Made by a program: the position numbers and the translations under genes. From Eledone cirrhosa (lineage: Eukaryota), in the NCBI GenBank assembly GCA_964016885.1, contig OZ024759.1, positions 17,360,001 through 17,424,000 on the forward strand: a DNA stretch of 64,000 nucleotides. The letters run 5' to 3'. Below are positions 791 through 56,238 of this stretch, one piece after another. The first letter of the stretch is position 1; every line of letters begins with the position of its first letter. Below the pieces are notes generated by a model, which was not told the DNA's origin, ran no database searches, and saw nothing but the letters and a program-made list of their open reading frames with translations.

Positions 791-933
791 GGACTAAAAA
801 ATATACAAAAGTTAGAAACCAATAAAATATGTAGAATTTACAATGTAACTGAAAAAACAACAACAAAAAAATATATAAAAAATATAAAAACTACAGTATA
901 TAACAAAAAAAAACAACAAAAAGTCCACTTTAC

Positions 934-1126
934 CTGGTTGTGATCAGGGAACGGAATAATGGAGGCACACACCCCTAGTACCATAGCGGGGTGGATCTCA
1001 CAGTGAGTATATGTAGAGCAGTATGCCATTCCTTGGAGATCATCAGGAGTCATGGCTAACATTACAGTCTCTTCTTCGAGAGGATCAATATATTCCACAA
1101 CACCGCTGGCAACAAGATCCTGCCAA
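934..1126 (-). CDS. POLR2B: RPB2 exon 14 ([20 protein letters not shown]...[25 protein letters not shown])
   Basis: THCEIHP and IIPFPDHNQ motifs; ctag/gtaaag; 193 nt. Confidence 0.97.
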
Positions 1127-1539
1127 CTAGTAAGAGATAAAAAAAAACAATATTCATTTACTACCTATATTGAATCTTGAGGCAGCGTATTAACAGAGTT
1201 CAGAGAACGTCCGATAGAAAGCTCTGCAACATTCGTTTCAGCTCTCAGACATCAAATCCCGCTGAGGTCAACTTTGCCTTTCATCCATTCGAGGTTGATG
1301 AAAAAAATACCAGTGTAGCTCTGTAGTACTGGGGTTGATTCTTCCTCTATATCTCTTTCTCACTATCTCTATGCTTCTCCAGAAGAAATCTGGTGTATTC
1401 AGAACTGGAGAGGAGATAGATAGGTTCTGCTATGGTTTTAAAATGCCCTATTTCAATATGGCGGCCCTACGACTCCCTCGGGAGTTAGGGGAAAAGATGA
1501 AAGATGATGATGTTGTGTCTTGGGTAATTCCTGAAAGAA

Positions 1540-2070
1540 TACAATTGCCAATGCAAGTGACTAAAATGGAGTTCTTCTGAAGGGACTTCAGAGTAATGTT
1601 GGTCAATAGAGATCAGGGAGTCACTCCATGTACAGCTACTACTTCTCCGAATTGAGAGATCACAGCTCTGGTACTACGGGCATGAGGTTACAATGTCTCA
1701 GTTAAGATACACTACACATATTTTATGCGCAAAGCCAACCAGCAAGAGACCCAGGGGTAGACCACAAGCAAGTGGCTGAAATAGGGTTCCTCTGAAGGGT
1801 CTTTGGAATAAAGTTTCATGATAGGGGGCATAGTTAAGCGATCAGGGCATCACTCCAGGTAGAGATGCTACTTTGCATTGAGAGATCACAGCTCCAGTAC
1901 TATGGACATGTGATTAGAAGAATGTCTAAGGAAAGAATCACTAGACAGATTTTATGGGCAAAGCCAACCAGGAGACCCAGGGGTAGCCCTTGAGCAAGAT
2001 GGTTGGATGAAATCCATAAGCTCAGATTGGTGATTACTCAAGATCATTTGTAGATGGTTGCTTCTGATAG
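1540..2070 (+). mobile_element. Two tandem degenerate RTE-like 3' fragments
   Basis: GAGAGATCACAGCTC...GCAAAGCCAACCAG...AGACCCAGGGGTAG occurs twice and matches the 20.2-20.4 kb element. Confidence 0.6.
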
Positions 2071-2159
2071 AACCATAAGGTTTTATCAGAAGCATAGAAC
2101 CTTATGGAAGGCATAACTTAGGACTCTGCCTTCATGACACTTTAATAACACCAGCATCA

Positions 2160-2855
2160 GTAACAACAACAACTACAAAATGAATAGCAGCAGAAACAAA
2201 GAGAACCAGCAACAGCAATAACAACCTCCACACCACCACCACCAACAACAAAACTAGACCCACCACTAGCAAAACAACCATTAACAGCAGCAACAACACC
2301 ACCACCACCACAAACAACACTAGCAGCAGCAGCAACAACAACAAAACTAGACCCACCACTAGCAAAACAACCATTAACAGCAGCAACAACACCACCACCA
2401 CCACCACCACCAACAACAAAACTAGACCCACCACTAGCAAAACAACCATTAACAGCAGCAACAACACCACCACCACCAACAACAAAACTAGACCCACCAC
2501 TAGCAAAACAACCATTAACAGCAGCAACAACACCACCACCACCACCACCAACAAAACTAGACCCACCACTAGCAAAACAACCATTAACAGCAGCAACAAC
2601 ACCACCACCACCACCACAAACAACACTAGCAGCAGCAGCAGCAACAACAACAAAACTAGACCCACCACTAGCAAAACAACCTACAACAAAACAACATTAG
2701 CAGCACAACCATTAACAGCAGCAACAACAACAACACCACCACCACCACCACAAACAACACTAGCACCATCACTAGCAGCAGCAACAACAACAACAGCCGT
2801 AGCACCTATAACAACTACAACAACAACCACACCACTACCAGCACCAACACACATA
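2160..2855. repeat. CAA/CAC/CAG-rich minisatellite
   Basis: Recurrent AAAACTAGACCCACCACTAGCAAAACAACCATTAACAGCAGC unit. Confidence 0.9.
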
Positions 2856-2884
2856 ACATAATGAGACTGACAGAGCAGACCTAC

Positions 2885-3039
2885 CTGTAATTGTTGTACT
2901 CTCTTTGTTTCAACTGTTTAATGTGACTCTGTTTGAGCAGAAGTTTCTGGTTCTCGACAATCAGCAATGGCCGACAGATACGGCCGGCGTCGGTGTATAT
3001 CCGAATCTCTCGATCTCTGATATCTCGAATCATTGATAC
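2885..3039 (-). CDS. POLR2B: RPB2 exon 13 ([28 protein letters not shown]...EYNNY)
   Basis: TDAGR.CRPL motif; tcag/gtaggt; 155 nt. Confidence 0.96.
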
Positions 3040-3099
3040 CTGAGTTAGATGAACAGTGCTATGATAAGTTAAAGAATGTAGAGGGGTAGTACTGATGTG

Positions 3100-4265
3100 C
3101 TGGTGCCGTGATAAAATGCACCCATTACACACTGTAAAGTGGTAGTATTGGTGCCATGATACAATGGACCCAGTACACTCGGTAAAGTGGTAGTACTGGT
3201 GCCATGATACAATGCACCCGGTACACTCTGTAAAGTGGTAGTATTGGTGCCATGATACAATGGACCTGGTACACTCGGTAAAGTGGTAGTACTGGTGCCA
3301 TGATACAATGGACCCGGTACACTCGGTAAAGTGGTAGTACTGGTACCATGATACAATGGACCCGGTACACTCTGTAAAGTGGTAGTGTTGGTGCCATGAT
3401 ACAATGGACCTGGTACACTCGGTAAAGTGGTAGTGTTGGTGCCGTGATAAAATGCACCCATTACACACTGTAAAGTGGTAGTATTGGTGCCATGATACAA
3501 TGGACCCGGTACACTCTGTAAAGTGGTAGTATTGGTGCCATGATACAATGCACCCGGTACACTCTGTAAAGTGGTAGTATTGGTGCCATGATACAATGGA
3601 CCTGGTACACTCGGTAAAGTGGTAGTGTTGGTGCCGTGATAAAATGCACCCAGTACACTCTGTAAAGTGGTAGTGTTGGTGCCGTGATACAATGCACCCG
3701 GTACACTCTGTAAAGTGGTAGTGTTGGTGCCATGATACAATGGACCTGGTACACTCGGTAAAGTGGTAGTGTTGGTGCCGTGATACAATGCACCTGGTAC
3801 ACTCTGTAAAGTGGTAGTGTTGGTGCCGTGATACAATGCACCTGGTACACTCTGTAAAGTGGTAGTGTTGGTGCCGTGATACAATGCACCTGGTACACTC
3901 TGTAAAGTGGTAGTGTTGGTGCCATGATACAATGGACCTGGTACACTCGGTAAAGTGGTAGTGTTGGTGCCATGATAAAATGCACCCAGTACACTCTGTA
4001 AAGTGGTAGTATTGGTGCCATGATACAATGGACCTGGTACACTCGGTAAAGTGGTAGTGTTGGTGCCGTGATAAAATGCACCCAGTACACTCTGTAAAGT
4101 GGTAGTGTTGGTGCCGTGATAAAATGCACCCGGTACACTCTGTAAAGTGGTAGTGCTGGTGCCGTGATAAAATGCACCCAGTACACTCTGTAAAGTGGCA
4201 GTGCTTATGCCATGATAAAATGCACCTAATACACACTATAAACTGGTGGTGTTGCTCCCACAATA
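3100..4265. repeat. 45 bp tandem minisatellite (~25 units)
   Basis: Unit GTAAAGTGGTAGTGTTGGTGCCATGATACAATGCACCTGGTACACTCT-like; 15-aa periodic ORFs. Confidence 0.95.
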
Positions 4266-4648
4266 AAATATACACCTAGTAAACTATATAAAGTGTTTGG
4301 TATGAGGAAGGGCACCTAGTCATAGACATCATACCAAAAGGATAGATAGAACTTTTCAGTTTCCTCAAGGATACAACAACCTTTCTAGCACAGGTGCCAG
4401 GATGAAATGCACCCAGTACACTCTGTAAAGTGGTTGGTGATAGGAAGGATATCCAACTGTAAAAAATATACCAAAATACCAAAATATACCAAAATCTGAG
4501 TTGACGTGATCCACCAACCAGTCAAGGAGCACAGTAGCTTGGTCAGTACTTATTACAAGTCAATAAGTATTGACTTGGTCTGTAACGACCTATCCATCTA
4601 ATGCCAGTATGGAAAAGAGGACGTATGATGATGATGTAGAAAACTTAC

Positions 4649-4760
4649 TTCAGATACAATAATATCCATTTCTCTTCTTAATTTTCTTAAAGTGTTCATC
4701 AACTGTTCAGGATCTCGATGGATTCCAACCCAGCAACCATTGACAAAGATTTTTGTTGCA
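4649..4760 (-). CDS. POLR2B: RPB2 exon 12 ([37 protein letters not shown])
   Basis: KIFVNG.W.G motif; gtag/gtaagt; 112 nt. Confidence 0.96.
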
Positions 4761-5276
4761 CTACAAACAAATATATGATAGGTGGACATTTAGAGAAAAT
4801 GTAGTGAAACATCAGAATCTATCTAAAATAATAGGAGATCAATTAGTAGAGTGGTTGGCATTAGAAGACTCTTCAGTTGTGTCAATGACATGACAACTCT
4901 CTAGTGCTAGAGACACAATAAAGCATATCCAGTACATTTTGTGAAGTGTTTGGCATTAGGAAGGGCATCCAGCTGTAGAAACCCTGCAAAACAAAGTGGG
5001 CTTAGAGGACTCTTCAGTTCCATCAAGGACATGAAAGCCTCTCTAGAGCTAGTGACACAATAAAACGTATCCAGTTGTGTAGGCCCTGTCATGGGATTTG
5101 CAGCTAGAAAGTTCCTCTCCAAGTAAACTGGAGCAACATGAAATATAGTGTCTTGCTCAAAGACACAACGCACTGCCAAGTCCAGAAACTGAACCCACAA
5201 CCTCACGATTGTGAGCCTTTACACAATATATTAACTACAGAAACAACTATTTTTTTTAAATAAAAAAATGATATAT

Positions 5277-5757
<481 letters not shown>

Positions 5758-5760
5758 CTA

Positions 5761-6078
<318 letters not shown>

Positions 6079-6119
6079 TTAAAAAAAAACCTCTACAAAA
6101 TCATCATCATCATCCATTT

Positions 6120-6405
6120 TTTTTTTTCACGTTCAGAGTTGCTGAAGCATGGAACAAACTATTTGCATCGGTTAGCTGTCGGGACACTGTATCCTTCAAA
6201 ACCTCCATGTTTCCCGAAATTCCCCAACACTACACCTGATATTCCACCTCCATACACATACATGCATGTATCTGTGTTTATATCATGACTCATACATTGT
6301 TCACTTTCCTGACATTTGTACATTATTCTATGTACTATACATGCACCTTTGATGAGTTGTAGTGCACCTGAGCATTGTACACAATAATTTCATTACTATT
6401 ATCTT
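6120..6405 (+). mobile_element. CR1/L2-like LINE 3' end
   Basis: FFTFRVAEAWNKL..SFK motif; same 3'UTR (GTAGTGCACCTGAGCA..GTACACAATAA) at 30605-30730 (-) and 43185-43350 (+). Confidence 0.6.
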
Positions 6406-6424
6406 CACTGTGTTGGACGAGATG

Positions 6425-7905
6425 CCTTCATCACAAACCACTACCCCCCCACTACTACCTTCATCACAAACTACTACCCCCCCCACTACTACCTTCATCA
6501 CAAACCACTACCCCCCCACTACTACCTTCATCACAAACCACTACCCCCCCCACTACTACCTTCATCACAAACCACTGCCCCCCCCCACTACTACCTTCAT
6601 CACAAACCACTACTACCTTCATCACAAACCACTACCCCCCCCACCACTACCTTCATCACAAACCACTACCCCCCCCCCCCACTACTACCTTCATCTTCAT
6701 CACAAACTCCCATCACATCCCCCACCCACTATTACCATCATCGCAGACCACCACCACCATAACCAACTACTACCACTACCAACTACCGCTACCACCACCA
6801 CCAACTACTACCGCTACCACCACCATAACCAACTACTATCACTACTACCACCACCAACTACTACCGCTACCACCACCATAACCAACTACTACTACCGCTA
6901 CCACCACCATAACCAACTACTACCACTACCAACTACTACTACCGCTACCACCACCATAACCAACTACTACCACCACCAACTACTACCGCTACCACCACCA
7001 TAACCAACTACTATCACTACTACCACCACCAACTACTACTACCGCTACCACCACCATAACCAACTACTACTACCGCTACCACCACCACCACCAACTACTA
7101 CCACTACCACCACTACCACCACCATAACCAACTACTACCACCACCAACTACTACCGCTACCACCACCATAACCAACTACTACCACCACCAACTACTACCG
7201 CTACCACCACCATAACCAACTACTACCACTACCAACTACTACTACCGCTACCACCACCATAACCAACTACTATCACTACTACCACCACCAACTACTACTA
7301 CCGCTACCACCACCATAACCAACTACTACCACTACCAACTACTACTACCGCTACCACCACCATAACCAACTACTACCACCACCAACTACTACCACTACCA
7401 CCACCATAACCAACTACTATCACTACTACCACCACCAACTACTACTACCGCTACCACCACCATAACCAACTACTACTACCGCTACCACCACCACCACCAA
7501 CTACTACCACTACCACCACTACCACCACCATAACCAACTACTATCACTACTACCACCACCAACTACCGCTACCACCACCATAACCAACTACTACCACTAC
7601 CACCACCATAACCAACTACTACCACTACCGCTACCACCACCATAACCAACTACTATCACTACTACCACCACCAACTACTACTACCGCTACCACCACCATA
7701 ACCAACTACTACCACTACCAACTACCGCTACCACCACCATAACCAACTACTACTACCACTACCACCACCATAACCAACTACTATCACTACTACCACCACC
7801 AACTACCGCTACCACCACCATAACCAACTACTACCACTACCGCTACCACCACCATAACCAACTACTATCACTACTACCACCACCACCACCACCACCACCA
7901 CCACA
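6425..7905. repeat. (ACC/ACT)n complex satellite
   Basis: Repeated ACCGCTACCACCACCATAACCAACTACT units. Confidence 0.92.
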
Positions 7906-7939
7906 ACACTGACAGAAGTGACCACATGGGTTAGTATAC

Positions 7940-8126
7940 CTGAGAGACTCCAGCCCTTGCTTGATGGGCTTTCTTCTGGTCTCCCCAGTTGCCAGTGGCC
8001 AAAGAATACTTCAGGCCGTCTGTGATAATCCTCGTCTTTATGGCCAGTTCCAGATTGAAATCTTTCCCCCGATCAATAAACTTTTGGGCATAAATCCGAA
8101 CTTCTTTCATCAGATTCCGGAACAAA
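7940..8126 (-). CDS. POLR2B: RPB2 exon 9 ([10 protein letters not shown]...[12 protein letters not shown]...RAGVSQ)
   Basis: [11 protein letters not shown] motif; ctag/gtatac; 187 nt. Confidence 0.96.
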
Positions 8127-8171
8127 CTAGAATAGGACATATTGAAAATGTCAGGTGAATATAAACATGTA

Positions 8172-9245
8172 TTATACATACATACATACATACATACATA
8201 TACAGACAGATGCATAGATAGATAGACAGAGAGAGAGATAGATACATGGATTGATACATAGATAGATAGATATATAGATACATGGATTGATAGATACATA
8301 CATACATGGATTGATAGATACATAGATTGATAGACAAATACATAACATGGATTGATAGACAGACAAATACATAACATGGATTGATAGACAGACAAATACA
8401 TAACATGGATTGATAGATACATACATACATACATGGATTGATAGATAGATACATACATTACATGGATTGATAGATAGATACATATATACATAAACATACA
8501 TAAAGATAGACAGACATAAACATACATAACATACATAAAGATAGACATACATAACATACATAAAGATAGACAGACATAAACATACATAACATACATAAAG
8601 ATAGACATACATAACATACATAAAGATAGACATACATAACATACATAAAGATAGACAGACATAAACATACATAACATACATAAAGATAGACATACATAAC
8701 ATACATAAAGATAGACATACATAACATACATAAAGATAGACATACATAACATACATAAAGATAGACATACATAACATACATAAAGATAGACAGACATAAA
8801 CATACATAACATACATAAAGATAGACATACATAACATACATAAAGATAGACAGACATAAACATACATAACATACATAAAGATAGACATACATAACATACA
8901 TAAAGATAGACATACATAACATACATAAAGATAGACATACATAACATACATAAAGATAGACATACATAACATACATAAAGATAGACAGACATAAACATAC
9001 ATAACATACATAAAGATAGACATACATAACATACATAACATACATAAAGATAGACATACATAACATACATAAAGATAGACATACATAACATACATAAAGA
9101 TAGACAGACAGATATAATAAAACATACATAAAGAGAGACAGATAGATACAGAAAGATACATAGATTCATACATATATAGATAGATTTCTTTATTTGCCAC
9201 ATATATAGATAGATAGATAGATATATTGATATATAAACAGATACA
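8172..9245. repeat. (ACAT/AGAT)-based complex satellite
   Basis: Repeated CATACATAACATACATAAAGATAGA units. Confidence 0.92.
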
Positions 9246-9481
9246 TAGAAAGATAGATAAATAGTTAGGTAGACAGTTATGTAGATAAAGTACCAGGCAA
9301 ATACTGGTGTTTATATAATCAACTTTCTCTAAATTGCTGGCCTTGTGCCTAGATTAAAAACCATCGTTTACAGATAAAAAAAAATAAAGAACATAAAAAG
9401 AGGTAGGCCGAGAATATTACCAGGAAAGGGAGGATGGGTAAGAGGATGAGGGGGATGAGGAGGCGGTTTAGTCATACTTAC

Positions 9482-9601
9482 CCTCTGAACAAGAAGGCTA
9501 ACAGTGGTCCTGCCAAATCCAGTCTTTTGTTACCATAGTGATCTCTGTCGTCCACTTCTTTGCGGCCACAGGCAGCCAAAAGAAGCCTATGTACCATGTA
9601 T
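9482..9601 (-). CDS. POLR2B: RPB2 exon 8 ([40 protein letters not shown])
   Basis: [18 protein letters not shown] motif; tcag/gtaagt; 120 nt. Confidence 0.97.
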
Positions 9602-10002
9602 CTGAAAAATATGATAATGTATATGTATATATATATATGGAGGCACATATATATATATATATATAGATGGAGGCACATGGCTTAGTGGTTAGAGCATTGG
9701 CCTTGCAATCGAAAGGTTGTGAGTTCAATTCTCAGACCGCAAGCAGGGAAAAAGTGGACGTAAAATGAAATGAAGAAGAAATAGTGAACATGCTTAACCC
9801 TTTAGCTCTTAAACCGGCTATATCCATCCAGAATTCTTTCTGTTCAAACCAGCTGCCCATACTTATGTTAAGGTATTGTTCTCAAAATAAATAACATGAA
9901 AATCTCGTAGATTTGATATTATATGAGATAAAGTGTTTACTATGAAAATATAATAGTAAATATAGAGTAATTTAAATGTTAAAGGGTTAAAGATGTTACT
10001 CA

Positions 10003-10512
<510 letters not shown>

Positions 10513-11327
10513 AAAGCAGCTGTTTGATCATCATCATCACTGTTTAACGCCTATCTTCTATGCTTGCACAGGTTAGAATGGCTGTCACATTATGAGGCTA
10601 GACTGGTCAAATGACAGTGTCTCACTCGTATGACTCATTCAATCTTGTTGATGCCTTACAGTGTTTATTTTAGCTCTTTGTGTTCTGAGTTTAAATCCTG
10701 ATATGGATTCAGTTAATTAAAGAATTTTGTGGGATTGACTAAAATGATTAATTACTAGAATTTTTTTCCATACGCTGATGCGTATGTGTGTGTGTGTCCC
10801 CGTGCATATGCATTCATTTATATGTATGAGTATATAAATATAAACGTGCAAACACAGACACTTACAAAAATACACACTCAGACATACATTCACACAAACA
10901 CATACACACACAGCATAACAAATGGAATGCCATCTGCTATTTTCCTTTTACACACACATACATTCACGCAAACACTCACAAACATACATTCACACACAGC
11001 ATTATTTCACCATCCCCTTCCTTCCTTTTACACATACATTCATGCAGGCAGTAGATATGAAGAGAGAGGAGTAGTATGAGGTAGTCAAACTACTCCTCTC
11101 TCTTTACGGGTTGTGACAGAATCGCAGAAATTTATATATAGATTTCATTACTAAGATAGTATTTGTGACAAACAGTTCTTATATTCAATTATGTTGGAAG
11201 ATGTTAATTTAAATAGCGAGATTTGAACTCAGAATACAAAAACCCAGATTTACAAACTAAATAAATACTGCAAAATATTTTGACTGACTCTCTACCAAAT
11301 CTCTACCAATAAAAAAAAATAGCTTAC

Positions 11328-11492
11328 CATTTCCATCATTTCTGGGTCATCAAAATCATAAATGATGTGTTCAAGGATGTCTCGATCAGACACAAAACCA
11401 AGAGCTCTGAATACAATAATGATGGGAATCTCCTGACGAATATATGGCAAGATGGCAATAATCTTCTGTCCAATGGCACTTTTTTTCACACC
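11328..11492 (-). CDS. POLR2B: RPB2 exon 6 ([32 protein letters not shown]...DPEMMEM)
   Basis: RPB2 homology; ttgtag/gtaagc; 165 nt. Confidence 0.96.
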
Positions 11493-12034
11493 CTACAAAA
11501 CAGATAGAAAATAATTTTTTTTTTATTGTTGTTTGGTCAAAGAGGGCAGTGACCTCTACCCTTTATGATAAGGTGTATAACAGTTATGGGTGTATATAAC
11601 ATTATCATTATATACATATGTATGTGTGTGTGTGTGTATGTATGAGTATATATCATCATCATCGTTTTACGTCCATTCTCCCATGCTAGCATGGGTTAGA
11701 CGGGTTGTCCTGTTGTGGGCAGTGTCTGGTTGGCTGACCTTGTCTTGCTCATATGGGAACTGATTCTGGCTTGATTTCTACAGCTGGATGCCATTCCTAA
11801 CACCAACCTCATTTACAGTGAGTGCTGGGTGCTTTTTTGCCGTGGCACCTCCACGACCACTTTGCAGTGGAATGATAGGGACCTCAGTCCTATCATCTCA
11901 TTTCTACAGCTGAGTAAACTGGAGCAATGTGAAATAAAGTGTCTTGCTCAAGGAAACAACACATCACCCGGTCCGAGAATTGAACTCAACCTTTCGATTG
12001 CCAGCCCAATGTTCTAATCACTAAGCCATGCGCC

Positions 12035-12069
<35 letters not shown>

Positions 12070-12247
12070 TAATAATAAATTTGAAGACTAAAATCCAAAG
12101 AGGGCTCGATAAGGATAAATATATATCAAATATCTAAGAACCGTAGAGCAAATATTTATTAAAATAACAGATTAAAGTTTAAGCAAAGAATCGCTGCTTT
12201 CACCCTTAACGGGACAAGATAGGAAAACAACAAAGAATTTCACTTAC

Positions 12248-12369
12248 AGTTCCTCCTCTTGCCATCATGTTCACCCAAAGTGTACTGGTAGGACGGGATG
12301 AATGTTCTAGGCAAGACCGGATTTCTGTTTTATAAGCATACTTTGAGTCTTTCTGTTGGAATACGTACA
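12248..12369 (-). CDS. POLR2B: RPB2 exon 5 ([41 protein letters not shown])
   Basis: Manual translation; tttcag/gtaagt; 122 nt, phase consistent. Confidence 0.95.
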
Positions 12370-12589
12370 CTGAAATAAAGAAACAAAATGGTAGATATGA
12401 AAAAATAGGGAGTCAAAATAGTAATATGAAGAAAGAAATTGATTTCATCCGTGTATACATATATATATATACATGCTTAAAATTTACTTTTCCATTTTTT
12501 TTACCATCCTAAAATAAGATTTAACCTACATAATAACACAGTAATAGTGAAGGATGGTGGAATACAAACATAGAATTAAAAAGCCTTAC

Positions 12590-12846
12590 CAGTGTTTGTA
12601 GCCATTTTTTCTTGTGCAATGAGAACTTTTTCTGATCCATTAATGATAAAATATCCACCAGGATCAAGGGGACATTCATTCAACTCTGTTAAATCACGAT
12701 CGGTGAGACGATTGAGAAGGCAATAAGTTGAACGCAACATAATCGGGATTTTACCGATGAAGGTCTTCTGATGTTGTGTTTCAACTGGTTCTTCAGCTTC
12801 TTTAATCACAGTTTTCGTGATATCAACATAAAGAGGAGCCGAGTAG
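12590..12846 (-). CDS. POLR2B: RPB2 exon 4 (YSAPLYVD...GKIPIMLRS...[29 protein letters not shown])
   Basis: Conserved RPB2 motifs; ag/gtaagg; 257 nt. Confidence 0.97.
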
Positions 12847-13122
12847 CTAAAGGAAACAAGAACAACAACATTATTGATAAATAATATGGACAGATAAAGA
12901 GGTTGGAGAGAGGAAGGACATCCCACTGTAGAAAACCTACCAAACAAAGAGTTAAGAGGAATCTTCAGCTGTGTCAAAGACATGACAACTTCTCTAGTGT
13001 TGGTGATTTACATCAGTGGTTCCCAACCTTTTTTTAGCTCATGGCCCACTTTGAACCCAGAATTTTTGTGGCACACAAAATTATTATAGTGTAAAAAATT
13101 ACTTCCATTTTACATTTACTTA

Positions 13123-13314
<192 letters not shown>

Positions 13315-14107
13315 TCAGGTTTAGCATTTACATTACTCTATATTTACTATTGTATTTTCACAGTAAAGGCTTTTACCTCACATAATATTAAATTTATGAT
13401 TTTGATATTTATTTTGAGAATAATACCTTAACGTTGGTATGAGTGGCCGGTTACAGCTGGTTTGAACAGAAAGAGGTGAGAAAATTCTGGCTAGTTACAG
13501 CCTGTTTAAAAGCTAAAGGGTTAAAGTGTAACGTGAAGTTGAAGAATTATAAAGCACTAATTGTTTTTTCTACCAGCAAAAGTTGGATGGCTCATCATCA
13601 CAAACGAAGTCAGTGCTCAAGCGGAACTACTGACCTCTCAGATGGGCTGGAAGGCCTGCATCTCGCTTACATATGTTCTAGCACGATACCAAGTGCATTT
13701 TATCATGGCACTTGCACTAGGGGCATTGTCATGTGTTTGACATTGCTGAAGAGTCCTCTTAACCCTTCTTTTTTTGCAGGTTTTATATGACTGCATGCCC
13801 TTCCTCTAACCAACCACTTTACTGGATGCATTCTATTATGAAGAATTTTTGAGGGATTTATCAAAATTATTAATCATTTCATGACTAAGTAACTTAACAA
13901 ATGGTTCTTATATAAAATGATGTCGATAGAATTAAATTCAACTATGAACTATTTGAAATGGGTGGCTTGATTTCATAAAAACAGGTTAAAGAAATTTTGA
14001 AGGATTTACTAAAATTACGTTGAAAGATTTTCATTTAAAAAGGAACTGCGTTTCATACAAGCAAAGTATGTTTGGCTGGGGTGAGTATAAAAGAATTTAA
14101 TACTTAC

Positions 14108-14334
14108 AGGTGTCTCAACAATGCCTGATGTATGTTGTGCCTCAGCCTGCAAATCAATGGCAGGAGAATGCTCAACAATTCTCTGCACGGACATTTGAAT
14201 GAATTCATCAAAGGAATCCAACTGTTGTCTCACCAAACCCTTTTCATCAAAATATGAACTGATGACAATCCAACAGGCTTCTTGCCAGAGATCTGGGGTA
14301 ATTTCTTCTCCATCTTCTTCTTCCAGTACGGGAT
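14108..14334 (-). CDS. POLR2B: RPB2 exon 2 ([45 protein letters not shown]...VETP)
   Basis: Hallmark RPB2 motif [13 protein letters not shown]; ag/gtaagt boundaries; 227 nt. Confidence 0.96.
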
Positions 14335-14703
14335 CTATAATAAAAATCACATGTAAAACAAACAATTCACATCACAAAATTAAATGAGATTGAAATGGAG
14401 GGAAGCGAATGGAGAGAGAAGAAATCCTCACATTTGATGACCCTATTGCTGTTTCAGTTGGCAACATAACAGAGTCGTCAGATAGATTGGTCTGTGGTAT
14501 TTGCTCTAACTCTGCCCTCTGAGTTCAAATCCTACTAAAGTCAACAAATAACGTAGCAATCTAATAGTGAGGTGAAGTTTTCCTCTGTTTGTCTGTCTGT
14601 ATATATATATATATTTATATATATGTTAGGTAATTCCGAAAGAAAAGCAAAGGAAAAAAGAGTGCTCTATGTATAGAACGAATCTCATTTCATATCTTTT
14701 ATC

Positions 14704-14784
14704 TATAACATCTCTGACGACCGAATCCAGACGTATATTATTATCGTCTATGATCCAGAAACATTTGGTAATGGAGTAGTTATA
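14704..14784 (+). ncRNA. Degenerate hammerhead ribozyme, family A
   Basis: CTGACGA...AGACG/CGTCT...GAAACATTTGGTAATGGAG; upstream flank GAGTGCTCTATGTAT shared with the 51.9 kb copy. Confidence 0.5.
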
Positions 14785-14837
14785 TTTTGTGTTGTTCAAT
14801 TTCTAATTACGTATATATATATATATATATATATATA

Positions 14838-22938: not shown

Positions 22939-23035
22939 ATGGAAGTTTACCAAACCGAAAACCATTTTATTATAGTGGATGGAACTCATTTACTTTGGTG
23001 CAGTCGGATAGACGGATCTTTAAAAGCTGAAACAG
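22939..23035 (+). CDS. INPP5F: Phosphatidylinositide phosphatase SAC2, coding exon 1 (MEVYQTENHFIIVDGTHLLWCSRIDGSLKAET)
   Basis: Resembles the human INPP5F N-terminus as recalled (MELFQAKDHYILQQGERALWCSRRDGGL); good Kozak ACCATGG; donor ACAG|gtgggt; 97 nt. Confidence 0.88.
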
Positions 23036-39909: not shown

Positions 39910-41310
39910 ATCATCATCATCATCGTTTAACGTCCATGTTCCACGCTTGCATGGGTTTGGACGGGAGTTTTCCCACTTGAGGCAAGAGTGGTTGTCATTG
40001 CTCGCATAGGACTGTCTGGCGGGTTTTCTACAGTTGGATGCCCTTCCTAACACCAACCACATTTACAGTGTGGGGCTGGGAGGTTTTTACCGTGTTGCCT
40101 ACATGGCCACATTACAGCGTGGACTGTCTGGCGGGTTTTCTACAGCTGGATGCCCTTCCTAACACCAGCCACATTTACAGTGTGGGGCTGGGAGGTTTTT
40201 ACTGTGTTGCCTACACGGCCACATTACAGCGTGGACTGTCTGGCGGGTTTTCTACAGCTGGATGCCCTTCCTAACACCAGCCACATTTACAGTGTGGGGC
40301 TGGGAGGTTTTTACCGTGTTGCCTACACGGCCACATTACAGCGTGGACTGTCTGGCGGGTTTTCTACAGCTGGATGCCCTTCCTAACACCAGCCACATTT
40401 ACAGTGTGGGGCTGGGAGGTTTTTACTGTGTTGCCTACACGGCCACATTACAGCGTGGACTGTCTGGCGGGTTTTCTACAGCTGGATGCCCTTCCTAACA
40501 CCAGCCACATTTACAGTGTGGGGCTGGGAGGTTTTTACCGTGTTGCCTACACGGCCACATTACAGCGTGGACTGTCTGGCGGGTTTTCTACAGCTGGATG
40601 CCCTTCCTAACACCAGCCACATTTACAGTGTGGGGCTGGGAGGTTTTTACCGTGTTGCCTACACGGCCACATTACAGCGTGGACTGTCTGGCGGGTTTTC
40701 TACAGCTGGATGCCCTTCCTAACACCAACCACATTTACAGTGTGGGGCTGGGAGGTTTTTACCGTGTTGCCTACACGGCCACATTACAGCGTGGACTGTG
40801 TGTTTTTTGTCGTGACACCTACACGATCTCATTTGTTTCGGCCTGGATGTTGTGGCACCAACATAACTTTACATTGAAAGGGGCGGTGTGGATGGGGTGG
40901 GGGTGGTGGGACGGGGGTGTATTTTGTTAGAGATGCCTGCTGACTGTAGTAGGTTTTACTTTGTATTTAGGTAAGGCGGGTCTTCTCTATTACTGAGTAC
41001 CGCCAAAGGTCTCGGTCCAGTGACATTGTCTTGGAGAGGTGTAAGTGTGTGAGGTCGGAATTTATCAGCTCGTCCCAGCATGCAAGCTTTGTTTCTCTCC
41101 AGTCTGCGTATATCCTCTGCACACAATGCCCAGGTCTCACTTCCATGTAACATTGCTGTTCGTATGCAGGCATCATACAGCCTGCCTTTCATTTTTAGAG
41201 AGAACCCTTTAGCGGCCAATAGTGGTATAAGCTCTCTGAACTCTAGCTACTGTACTTTCAGAGCACCCTCCCCCACTGCTGATTTTGTCACCCAGGTAAC
41301 GGAAGCTTCC
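39910..41310 (-). mobile_element. Same RTE LINE family, internally deleted, with tandemly amplified 3'UTR
   Basis: Near-identical to 44317-45247 (MAAKGFSLKMKGRLYDACIRTAMLHGSETW) but lacks ~215 nt and has a 7x112 bp array. Confidence 0.85.
40009..40799. repeat. 112 bp tandem array, 7 units
   Basis: ORF starts recur every 112 nt; units almost identical. Confidence 0.95.
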
Positions 41311-48038: not shown

Positions 48039-49155
48039 GTATGTCATATTTTTCTTAATCTTTATAGCACCCAGTTCATTCTGTAAAGCAACAGAGCTGG
48101 TGCCATGATAAAATGCATCCAGTATTCTCTGTAACATGGTTGGTATTAGGAAGAGCATCCAACTGTAGAAACCTTGCCGAGCAAAGTGTATCAAGTGCAT
48201 GACAACTTTCCTTGTGCTGGTGCCATGGTAAAATGATTCCAGTAGACTCTGTAAAGGGTATCCAACCCTAGAAACCATGTCTAACAAAGGGGTGAGAGGA
48301 TGTTTCAGTTGCCAAGGACATTACAACTTTCCTTGTGCTGGTACCATGTTAAAATGATTCCAGCACACTCTATAAAGGGTATCCAACCCTAGAAACCATG
48401 CCTAACAAAGGGGTGAGAGGACTTTTCAGTTGCCAAGGACATTACAACTTTCCTTGTGCTGGTACCATGTTAAAATGATTCCAGTACACTTTGTAAAGTG
48501 TTTGGTGATTGGAAGGGCAACCAGCTGTAGAAACCATGCCCAAACTGGAATGCATGTAAGAGAGACTTAACTCCTGACCTGAGAGGGAGGACAGTAGCTT
48601 TGATTAAGTACTAATTTGTCCAATCCATGCCAGCATAGAAAAAAAAAAGATGTTAACCCTTTAGCATTTAGATTACTCTCTATTTACTATTATATTTTTC
48701 ACAGTAAACACTTTACCTCCTAATATCGAATCTACAAGATTTTGGTATTATTTATTTTTAGAACAATACCTTAACATAAGTATGAGCAGCCAGTTACAGC
48801 TGGTCTGAAGAGATAAAGGTGGGAGAATTCTGGCTGGATATGGCTGGTTTAAATGCTGAAGGGTTAAATGATGATGATGATGATGATGTTTGTGTTGTAA
48901 TATTTCTCACATAGAGCAGTGGATTGGCAGTATTGGTAGAGGGTCAGATGCTATGCTTTGCAGCATAGTTACGGCCCTTTACGGTCTGAGTTCAAATCCT
49001 GCTGAGGTTAACTTTGCCTTTCATCCTTACTAGGTTGATAAATAAAGCACCAGTAATGCACTAGGGTTGATTTAATTGATTTTCCCCTCCCCTTCAAATT
49101 GTTGACCTTGTGCCAGAAACAATTATTATTTTTTGTTTGTATTTTTATTAACCAG

Positions 49156-49292
49156 ATTCAGAATGGAAGTTGATTTTGATCAAAAGTCAAAACCCTGTTG
49201 GTCAAATTCTTGAGACTCATGACATCTACCAGATCAATAAAGTTGCCATCCTCAGTTTATCTGGGCTAGAACCAACAGAACTAGGACTGTCG
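49156..49292 (+). CDS. INPP5F: SAC2 exon 3 (DSEWKLILIKSQNPVGQILETHDIYQINKVAILSLSGLEPTELGLS)
   Basis: Resembles DLPWWLILIRQKALVG...KIAVLSLSEMEPQDLEL; accag/gtaagt; 137 nt. Confidence 0.88.
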
Positions 49293-50760: not shown

Positions 50761-51894
50761 TGAGGAGCCACATATATTCTTGCCATTAGAAAAAAAGCAA
50801 AAATGAATACTTCACCTTCGAAAGAGGGATGACTCAAAAAGAAGTGTGTTTTTTTGTCCCTGAGCAACTTTCATACTCATTATTACTGGGACATTTCAGT
50901 GCATCTCCTTTGCTATCCTCTAGACCAAGTTTTTCAAAGTGGGCACTTCTGCCCCCCAAGGGGAGTTGAGAAGATCCAGGGGGTTGCTGAGGCCTAAGAG
51001 GATAGTAGTGATGATAGAATAGTATATTAAATATCAAATGATACATATTATATATAAATATAGTAAAATAAAAAATATATATTTATTTATTTATTTATAC
51101 ATAGTATATATTATAGTATATATTATAGTATTTATTATATAAGGTGGTGGATTGGCATTATTGGTAGAGGTTCGGACGCCATGCTTTGCAGCACAGTTAC
51201 GTCCCTTTACGGACTGAGTTCAAATCCCGCTGAGGTTAACTTTGCCTTTCATTCTTACAGGGTCGATAAAATAAAGTACCAGTAATGTACTGAGTAATTG
51301 CTGGCCTTGTGCCAAAAGTAGAAACAATTATTTATTATATATAAATTAATGATTTTATTTATATATTATTTACAATTTGTGTGGAGGTAGGTCTCTGTGG
51401 AAATAGGGTTGGAAGGTGTGTGTGTGTTGGGGGGGGGGCGCTGAGGGTATTACATGGCTGTGACGTGGGCGGTGGCCCCAAAAAGTTTGAGAATCTCTGC
51501 TCTAGGGAAACGCTGTCTCCATTCTGTCCACCGTGACCATGCAGCAGCTTATACATGGGGTTCTGTACATCAATACTGTTTGGTCTTGTATCATTGAGTG
51601 AGGTAGCATTGGTGTAGGTTGCTAATATCTATGACAGTTGTCAACAAAGCAAACACTTATATATTACCCTGATTTGTAAGGATTTGTTCTAGATTAATAT
51701 AAAGCTACTGAGAGAAACAGAAAGATAGAAAAAAAGTGAGATGTAGAGTAATAGGATATAAAAGAAATATACTATATATATATATTTATATATATATACA
51801 CACACACACACAGTTAAATATCACTCTCTTTAATATATATACTTTATATATATATATATAATTTAATTATGTAATAAACAACATCAGACAATTA

Positions 51895-51965
51895 TTCCAT
51901 TTAGCAAAGGTTTCACGAAAGCAGACGAGCTCAAGAGACGTCTGAAATCGCTCATCAGAATGAAA
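51895..51965 (-). ncRNA. Type I hammerhead ribozyme, family A (stem III mismatch)
   Basis: TTTCATT-CTGATGA-GCGA..CAGACG/CGTCTG..TCGT-GAAAC CTTTG CTA-AATGGAA. Confidence 0.6.
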
Positions 51966-52058
51966 ATTTATTACATAATTAAATAGCTCTGTAGCATACA
52001 TAGAGCACTCTCGCTTCCTTTACTCTTCCTACGGAAATACTTCATATATATATATATT

Positions 52059-52135: not shown

Positions 52136-52173
52136 ATATTAATAAATGGAAACTATATTTTTAAAACCATAAT

Positions 52174-52238
52174 TATTTTATTATATATATTTCAAGGGCT
52201 ACCAAGGCAGTCTTGGTGCGCTTTCATCAGATAAAATA
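52174..52238 (-). ncRNA. Minimal type I hammerhead ribozyme (mirror copy)
   Basis: Reverse-complement copy of 52338-52402 with intact CTGATGA/GAAA core. Confidence 0.72.
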
Positions 52239-52337
52239 CAAGATTTGTTTTATAAATATTGACATAACCGTGGAAAAACAACCTTGACGGTTGAAAGTTC
52301 GCTGTTGAAAGTTTGTTTGTTTATAAAACAAATCTTA

Positions 52338-52402
52338 TATTTTATCTGATGAAAGCACACCAAGACTGCCTTGGTAGCCCTTGAAATATATATAATAAAA
52401 TA
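52338..52402 (+). ncRNA. Minimal type I hammerhead ribozyme
   Basis: TATTTTAT-CTGATGA-stem II (AAG..ACCAAG/CTTGGT..CTT)-GAAA-TATATA-TA-ATAAAATA; 8 bp perfect stem I. Confidence 0.75.
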
Positions 52403-54253: not shown

Positions 54254-54327
54254 TATATATATATATATATATGTGTAATTCAGCTAGTATATATATATAT
54301 GTGTAGTATATATATATATGTGTAAAG

Positions 54328-54411
54328 ATAACTATTTCATCTGATGAATGAGCTGGATGTTTCTGTAAGGATCATCTAGTTTCCTGAAACCTTTGGTAAT
54401 GGAAGAATTAT
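54328..54411 (+). ncRNA. Type I hammerhead ribozyme, family A
   Basis: TTTCAT-CTGATGA-long stem II (GAGCTGGATG/CATCTAGTTT)-GAAA-CC TTT GG-TA-ATGGAA; GUA cleavage triplet. Confidence 0.68.
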
Positions 54412-55018
54412 ATTGTGTTGTTTATTATGTAATTAAATAAATAAATCTATATACACATACACATGCACCCAGTGAGTTAATATATCACTCTTTAATATAT
54501 ATATGTATGTATACACACATACACTGAATCTACATCTTACATTAATATATATTCACACATACACATTGTTTATATTTAGCAATAAACATCCTATTTCAGA
54601 TATCTCTCCCCCCTCTCTCTTTCTCTCTCCCCCTCTCTCTTTCTCCCCCTCCTCTCTCTCTCCCTCTCTCCCTTCCCCCTCTCTGTGTCTCTCTCTCTTT
54701 CTCTCACAGAGTAGGGAGTTGTTGTAATATACAGAATTAGGTTAAATACACAAGGTTTTCATCTGTCGAAATGTGCATATTCTGCAAGTAAAAAAATTGA
54801 GAATTTCGCCTAATTTTGTGTATATGTAGTAGACAATTAGGACCCAGCAGCAAGAGCTCAACCACCTGGCCCTAACTCTCTACTATATTTACACTCTATT
54901 ATCCCAAGTATCGAGTGCTCTCTTGAACAATGGTCTTACTAGTTTAAACTGGTAAAATCTCTCTGTCTCCCTCCTCTCTCTTCCTTTCTCCCCCTCTCTC
55001 TTCCTCTCTCTCCTCCTC

Positions 55019-55049
<31 letters not shown>

Positions 55050-56100
55050 GCGTGTGTGGTGCATTGACAGTCATTAGAATGCTGGATAGAAAGTTTTGTG
55101 GGAATTGCTCCAGTTATCTTACCTCTAAGTTTAACCCTTCAGCATTTAAATCAGCCATATCCGGCCAGAATTCTCTCACCTCTTTCTGTTCAAACCAGCC
55201 ACAACTGGCTGCACATACTTATGTTAAGGTATTGTTCTCAAAATAAATATCAAAATTTCGTAGATTTGATATGTTAAATAATTATGAGATAAAGTATTTA
55301 CCATGAAAATACAATAGTATATATAGAGCAATGCAAATGCTAAAGGGTTAAAGTCAATTTTTTCATTGTCAAGTTAAATAAAATATTACCAGTTGATTCT
55401 TCCTCTATATCTCTTTCTCACTTCCTTTCTATCACCCCCTCCCCTCTCTCTTCCCTTCTCTGGAAGAAATTGACTATATTCCAACATGGAGAGGGTATAT
55501 AATCTGCCAAATGTAAAATGGCCAAGACATGTATGTCTCAGCAGCGCTCTGATGACCCTATCAAGATTTACAAGTCCATATACTCACACTAACACAAACA
55601 CACACACATACACATAAAATCTTCTACCCGTAACCGCTGATGTTGTCATAGGGGTGCCACAGTGACATAGTATTTCTTGGGCATTGTTGAAACCTAGTGG
55701 AACACATCTCTTGAATACAGCTGATTTCTTTCAGAAGAAGCGAGAAAGAGATATAGAGGAAGAATCGACCCTAGTACTGGACTAGTACACTTTTTTATTG
55801 TCTGTGAAAGGGTGAAAGATAAAGTTGACCTCAACAGGATTTGAACCCAGAGTGCAGAAAGCCATAACAAATACAGCTAAGCATTCTATTTAACATTCTA
55901 ACAAAACTGCCAATTTACTGTCTCATATCTAAAGATGCACACCTTTACATGCACACACAAAACCAGCAAAGAATTACCAATGCTGACATGTAGACATTAA
56001 TAAAACTGAAGTGAAAACTTGTAATGTGTTAAGAGACCTTGGATGTAGGTTTATTTATATATTACTTATTTATCTATTTATTTGTTTGTTTATTTTGCAG

Positions 56101-56238
56101 CCATGTCCCAAACATCACTCTTTAAACAAAGAGAAACAAGGTTTTCAAAGCTCATCACTGACACAGACTAGTAGTAAACCTTTGCAGAAGACATGGAACT
56201 CTGTCAAATCAGCAGTTGAGAACGTCAAACCAAAGAAG
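56101..56238 (+). CDS. INPP5F: SAC2 exon 4 (PCPKHHSLNKEKQGFQSSSLTQTSSKPLQKTWNSVKSAVENVKPKK); gene continues beyond window
   Basis: Resembles LCKKHHFGINK...LLKTFTHIKSNVSAPNKKK; ttttgcag/gtaggc; 138 nt phase 0-0. Confidence 0.85.

Follow-up and report, generated by a model that had tools for sequence, protein, structure and literature searches.

We analyzed a window of 64,000 nt of Eledone cirrhosa DNA (contig OZ024759.1, positions 17,360,001 to 17,424,000; all positions without a locus name are those of this window) and found that the hammerhead-like sequence at 54.3 kb is one among thousands of 5'-truncated pseudo-LTR (pLTR) ends of a Penelope-like retrotransposon (PLE). With a probability of roughly 0.88 we regard it as the pLTR end of a Hydra-clade PLE, with a hammerhead that selection maintained in the source elements, and as what is now likely a neutrally decaying passenger in intron 3 of the host gene INPP5F.

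The 54.3 kb copy carries a type I hammerhead

The 54.3 kb copy (54328..54439, plus strand) is a 5'-truncated, tail-less pLTR end of subfamily S5 within a TA/TG microsatellite, and its end coincides with that of the 3' pLTR in the full element at locus L207. Its hammerhead was located by descriptor search and folding at 54335..54404 on the plus strand: stem I (54335-40/54399-404) is followed by the core segments CUGAUGA (54341-47) and GAAA (54386-89), the long stem II (54348-85) takes up the 38 nt between the core halves and stem III is formed by the 3 bp of ACC-UUU-GGU (54389-91/54395-97). With a GUA triplet and N17 at A54398, cleavage is predicted 3' of 54398. All core bases and all three stems are retained, and the copy was the only match to a strict type I descriptor in the window, both strands included. 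The stem I, core, stem III, GUA site and cut position that the earlier note had assigned to this copy hold on inspection and folding. The type I signature, CUGANGA and GAAA with an NUH site, is invariant in all six consensuses of the repeat family (family A, see below), and three helices open at stem I, as indicated by pairing and RNAalifold for stems II and III and by consensus inspection and constrained folding for stem I. The canonical G10.1-C11.1 pair is absent: depending on the subfamily we observed A-U, G-U or C-A there, and stem II of the 54.3 kb copy has A-U instead of G-C at its base, with a mismatch next to it. Rfam reported no hammerhead for the window at E <= 1 or for five loci at E <= 10, and the folding z-score of the 54.3 kb hammerhead was only -1.44. 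We regard the motif as a genuine type I hammerhead.

A profile search recovered exactly the three homologues that had been reported for the window, at 14.6 kb (plus strand), 51.9 kb (minus strand) and 54.3 kb (plus strand). The 51.9 kb copy (51860..51975, minus strand) is a pLTR end of subfamily S4 that lies antisense to the INPP5F pre-mRNA and whose hammerhead has a G16.2>C lesion; an inverted PLE tail of ~60 nt stands on its 5' side (51984..52042, plus strand; tail match of 85% over 59 nt). The 14.6 kb copy (14680..14810, plus strand) is a pLTR end of subfamily S3a, its hammerhead broken by a short stem I deletion and C15.3>A, and it too has an inverted tail on its 5' side (14623..14679, minus strand; 86% over 58 nt). 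The predicted shares of the hammerhead fold are 1e-7 for the 51.9 kb copy and 6e-11 for the 14.6 kb copy. The motif that had been described as shared by the three copies does reflect homology, but its (C/A) and (G/C) 'variants' turned out to be lesions of stem III, borne by the 14.6 kb copy and the 51.9 kb copy. The stretch GAGTGCTCTATG, which had been taken for shared upstream sequence, is the reverse complement of the 3' tail of the element. A hammerhead-like repeat of another kind occurs as an inverted pair at 52170-52400 (cores at 52346, plus strand, and 52230, minus strand; 8-bp stem I) and is probably another PLE end; its plus-strand copy likewise lies sense in INPP5F intron 3.

Genome-wide copies and the parent element

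Using the three window copies as queries, we obtained 1210, 2685 and 2249 first-look candidates in the 3.0-Gb genome (40 per query were scored, and these figures are not copy numbers). From these genome-wide candidates we conclude that the pattern at 54.3 kb did not arise by chance. Among 90 fetched loci the ~60-nt tail was present in inverted orientation in 56 and in sense orientation in 20, an inverted second hammerhead was found in 13, and in 83 a microsatellite lay at most 110 nt from the 3' end, the last being a raw count without background control in a microsatellite-rich genome. The depth of contigs from three runs of one sample, a summed value that is not a copy number, rose from ~680 at the 5' end of the element to ~170,000 near its 3' end, which fits 5' truncation. 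The 5' ends of the copies are ragged and merge gradually into the PLE 3' UTR. At the family-A loci we find the PLE signature described in PMC8557442: copies truncated at the 5' end, pieces in inverted orientation and a tail that may be present or absent. Since 35 of the 67 members of its subfamily are equally intact, the 54.3 kb copy is not special.

By walking upstream we found, at locus L162, a hammerhead and tail followed by ~110 nt and an ORF with RT and GIY-YIG pieces. The start of this ORF, used as a query, retrieved 29 further loci, 17 of them with a sense tail and 12 with hammerhead and tail directly upstream; the hammerheads joined to the ORF in these loci were of the S4, S3 and S1 type, that of the query locus itself being S5. 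In a control with another PLE family (that of L091), a family-A hammerhead was present at none of 29 non-query loci. At L207, direct repeats of 630 bp (81% identical) on either side of the ORF represent both pLTRs, of which the 5' repeat runs on through the tail and the 3' repeat ends tail-less like the 54.3 kb copy, and at L098 and L105 the 3' UTR stands upstream of the hammerhead. The order of the full element is pLTR (with hammerhead), tail, short leader, RT/GIY-YIG ORF, long low-complexity 3' UTR and pLTR, and in L162 and L207 we find the PLE arrangement of a single RT and GIY-YIG ORF between hammerhead-bearing pLTRs. All 13 ORF stretches examined were broken, none being intact, and for the four ORF fragments scanned Pfam gave no RT or GIY-YIG match. 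The RT-EN piece matches 209 proteins of at least 628 aa, and the best 120 of these 209 show 37-56% identity and carry no informative name.

These data also bear on an alternative in which the short copies replicate independently as a small RNA, forming a non-autonomous family of the retrozyme or SINE-like kind. In its favor, the majority of the copies measure 100-200 nt and are non-coding, and animal retrozymes have been argued to come from PLE pLTRs (bioRxiv 10.64898/2026.07.22.740005). However, the window holds no head-to-tail array of the hammerhead unit, the copies in the fetched loci are single or inverted, their ragged 5' ends grade into the PLE 3' UTR, and each main subfamily was found joined to the ORF. 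We consider independent replication of the short copies highly improbable and prefer to see them as truncated PLE ends. As the PLE literature suggests, the protein of the element would nick AT-rich DNA and prime reverse transcription immediately 3' to the hammerhead, the tail being included or not, and most insertions would stop early, leaving ends of 100-200 nt, often with an inverted piece.

Two further PLE ORFs that lie beside family-A copies, at L091 and L092, were tried as parent and rejected, each having its own different hammerhead-like end; for L091 the 29 other loci without family A were a second reason. The L091 ORF (L091:5045-7250, G000:C888) belongs to a second very abundant PLE family with 21,539 first-look candidates. 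The top 150 of these candidates show 89-100% protein identity, open frames reach 995 aa, and this family looks younger than family A. A third PLE lies at L092:6400-8600 (minus strand); it has a CxCx5C linker, and past its ORF comes a hammerhead-like end of variant form. A 310-bp tandem repeat at L162:9121-10000 (G000:C4; 99.8% identical) contains CTGATGA...GAAAC and a short stem, and could by its sequence be a retrozyme-like array.

Placement in the Hydra clade and comparison with known elements

In Craig 2021 (PMC8557442), the Hydra clade is defined by RWK, DKT, CxCx5C and CxxC/CxH. A frame-by-frame scan of the 13 broken copies detected RMRWK in six and SDKT near the ORF start in seven. The CxCx5C linker and CxxC and CxH around E and N were found at L200, L202, L203, L207 and L209, and CxCx5C is present in 107 of 120 homologues. 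Compared by eye, L200 and Hydra-1_Obim agree in 24 of the first 40 residues. Because an intact ORF was not found, the placement rests on these motifs in broken copies and the by-eye comparison, which support a Hydra-clade PLE as the putative parent.

Hydra-1_Obim of Octopus bimaculoides inserts into (TA)n and has a hammerhead with stem III ACC-nnn-GGU (PMC8557442). Family A shares with it RWK, DKT, the CxCx5C linker, CxxC/CxH, the C-terminal GIY-YIG, apparently the (TA)n flanks, and a hammerhead located in the pLTR with the same stem III pattern; many of the published Hydra hammerheads likewise have a stem II base other than G-C. It nevertheless constitutes a family of its own, with a distinct hammerhead sequence, a longer, internally bulged stem II (core halves up to 38 nt apart) and four or more subfamilies. 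The 3' UTR of family A comprises ~2.4 kb of low-complexity sequence and L207 exceeds 5 kb, whereas the published Hydra elements are mostly shorter than 3 kb. Like the metazoan PLE hammerheads of Cervera and de la Pena (2014, PMC4209133), those of family A are of type I with a large helix II and a short, near-palindromic helix III, number in the thousands as scattered single copies derived from truncated PLEs, include nearby opposite-strand pairs, and form consensus families with covariation; unlike them, they have a helix III of 3 bp instead of none and lack the conserved G10.1-C11.1 pair. The anole Poseidon PLE (Frangieh et al. 2024, PMC11167929) resembles family A in its optional tail 3' of the hammerhead and its AT-rich targets, but its ORF starts inside stem II, compared with ~110 nt past the tail in family A, and its tail measures 30-40 nt, compared with ~60 nt. 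The available part of PMC13282606 mentions no ribozyme.

Selection on the hammerhead structure

For the analysis of conservation we collected 153 distinct full-length hammerhead regions, of which six singletons were left out and 147 were grouped into six consensuses. The consensuses are 52-87% identical; CUGAnGA, GAAACC and GGUA are invariant, and N7, loop II and loop III vary. In an alignment of 27 hand-picked copies, 82% of the cells in stems II and III were paired compared with 74.5 +/- 1.0% in shuffled alignments and 24-42% with the partners slid, and doubly changed cells numbered 41 compared with 20 in the shuffles; two of five covariation measures were not above the shuffles (double-change pairs, 9 versus 8.2; extra pair types, 22 versus 23.5), and kinship among the 27 sequences inflates the remaining ones. 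The 9 pairs that RNAalifold predicted by itself all belong to stems II and III, and the consensus energy was weak. An additional pair in two subfamilies kept stem I from being counted on this alignment; inspection of the consensuses shows it paired in each, with a U-A/C-G swap.

Next to the pairing data, we considered whether an AT-rich repeat might resemble a hammerhead by chance. The absence of an Rfam match, the modest z-score and the two covariation measures that do not exceed the shuffles would agree with it. However, the core is invariant while N7 and the loops are free, over consensuses this divergent, pairing collapses when the partners are slid, and the motif occupies the pLTR position at which Hydra elements have their hammerheads (PMC8557442 File S2). 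We give chance a negligible probability and continue with the hammerhead as a structure of the PLE.

Among 30 copies, which had been picked by upstream sequence with a query that overlapped the first core half, all substitutions taken together hit the core in 7 of 317 and other non-CpG positions in 132 of 1935 cases (p = 0.0006); the 3' core half alone gave 3/143 versus 123/1700 (p = 0.015). For singletons the values were 7/317 and 49/1935 (p = 0.85), a family-level comparison of low power with 7 core events, and in 9 of the 30 copies a core base was altered or deleted. Since shared variants avoid the core and singletons do not, we read this as selection on the structure in the source elements followed by neutral decay after insertion, the second half at low power. 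The proposal that the structure was selected in the parent element is therefore supported by a Hydra-clade PLE parent, by the invariant core and by variants shared between copies that avoid it.

The stem II covariation that had been claimed stands only in part. The outer C-G/U-A swap (alignment columns 30/55) is real, as a difference between subfamilies, but the middle C-G to U-A change consists of two independent CpG transitions: in 65 of the 67 copies of the subfamily, the middle stem II CpG is found as CG (34), CA (15), TG (11) or TA (5), with a Fisher p of 1.0. Within this 67-copy subfamily the mutation rate amounts to 21-26% at CpG positions compared with 3-8% elsewhere, and over the hammerhead and the adjoining 3' bases the differences between the 54.3 kb copy and the subfamily consensus are three CpG transitions plus a single T>G. 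Where a CG is self-complementary, CpG decay on both sides can pass for covariation.

Setting of the copy in INPP5F

With the Octopus bimaculoides SAC2/INPP5F protein (P0121) as tblastn query, we mapped plus-strand coding exons of INPP5F/SAC2 at 22939, 47960, 49155, 56095 and 61420, including coding exon 3 (49155..49292, plus strand; 87% identity) and coding exon 4 (56095..56238, plus strand; 79% identity). Syja_N exons follow downstream on the same strand. Since these plus-strand exons and the downstream Syja_N exons flank it, the 54.3 kb copy lies in sense orientation in intron 3, between exons 3 and 4 by coding-exon count, in agreement with the previous assignment. The hSac2 profile matched on a different contig and was of no help for the host gene, which Syja_N and tblastn did place; Pfam scans of exon and ORF fragments were mostly blank. 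In contigs of two runs, in which repeats were skipped, we found no joint spanning the insertion at 54.3 kb, so that no empty allele was seen.

Elsewhere in the window, exons on the minus strand (841-14371) stand head-to-head with INPP5F; their translations resemble the RNA polymerase II subunit RPB2/POLR2B, and the 14.6 kb copy lies on the strand opposite to them. Two tandem arrays were observed, one at 3097-4254 (48-bp unit, 24 copies) and one at 40009-40799 (112-bp unit, 7 copies, 98% matches).

Possible cleavage of INPP5F intron 3

If the 54.3 kb copy were an active monomeric ribozyme, it could cleave intron 3 while INPP5F is being transcribed, and the level or the routing of INPP5F mRNA would be measurably lowered or changed. 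Its sense orientation, intact core, 6-bp stem I, 3-bp stem III and long stable stem II agree with such an activity, as does its position as the sole window copy that passes the strict descriptor, and the consensus of its subfamily folds as a hammerhead within 0.6 kcal/mol of the MFE. In the copy itself, however, constrained folding placed the hammerhead fold 3.3 kcal/mol above the MFE, and the predicted share of this fold is 0.0002-0.003 depending on context, the energies omitting tertiary contacts. Stem III as a lone hairpin is predicted at +0.4 kcal/mol and as a dimer at -5.1 kcal/mol, and the stem II base lacks the G-C pair. Although the copy indeed has no adjacent inverted arm, its description as unmasked fails: 2.3 kb upstream, intron 3 also contains the 51.9 kb copy in antisense orientation. 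The predicted duplex of the two copies spans the whole core at -88.1 kcal/mol, compared with -46.8 kcal/mol when folded apart and with -55.8 kcal/mol for the best of 200 random intron pieces (the copies themselves excluded). No post-insertion constraint was seen in the family. Among published PLE hammerheads, that of a schistosome showed no cleavage as a monomer and was weak as a dimer (PMC4209133), and that of the anole cut only with the protein of the element, with no RNA-seq ends at its site (PMC11167929). Because of the 3-bp stem III, the fold above the MFE, the antisense homologue earlier in the intron and these published hammerheads, co-transcriptional cleavage of intron 3 by the 54.3 kb copy is, on the predicted folds, poorly supported. 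We consider an active monomer that alters INPP5F mRNA very unlikely, and an effect of the hammerhead on INPP5F is unlikely.

For the passenger that we favor, a different course may be proposed for the two RNAs. In the parent RNA, cleavage past GUA would occur probably as a dimer via the near-palindromic stem III or with the aid of the element protein. In the host pre-mRNA the lone 54.3 kb copy would probably be too slow to matter, and the antisense 51.9 kb copy could sequester it. A farther-reaching idea is that family A, by virtue of its long, bulged stem II and its 3-bp stem III, represents a monomer-active hammerhead variant missed by Rfam, in which intact sense copies in octopod introns would be live co-transcriptional cut sites, tolerated only with an antisense copy nearby to pair with them, a part that the 51.9 kb copy would play in INPP5F intron 3, and the resulting dsRNA could be edited by ADAR; we regard this as a long shot.

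Implications

Intronic ribozymes of amniotes, including HH9/HH10, exist in few copies and are conserved between species; in contrast, the 54.3 kb copy is one of thousands of decaying transposon ends. What it has in common with the amniote ribozymes is a ribozyme on the sense strand of an intron (CPEB3; PMC6765202). The 54.3 kb hammerhead is a real but ordinary PLE hammerhead, and beyond the Hydra clade of Craig 2021 our literature search, with Repbase and Dfam outside its scope, found no prior description of its family. The element in INPP5F intron 3 likely brings no benefit to the host. Our findings add to the Hydra clade a high-copy PLE family, family A, whose four hammerhead subfamilies go undetected by Rfam and which offers a natural series of compensatory variants for testing PLE ribozymes. 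If its monomers cut quickly, live cleavage sites would be present in many octopod introns, and selection would act on the orientation of these copies.
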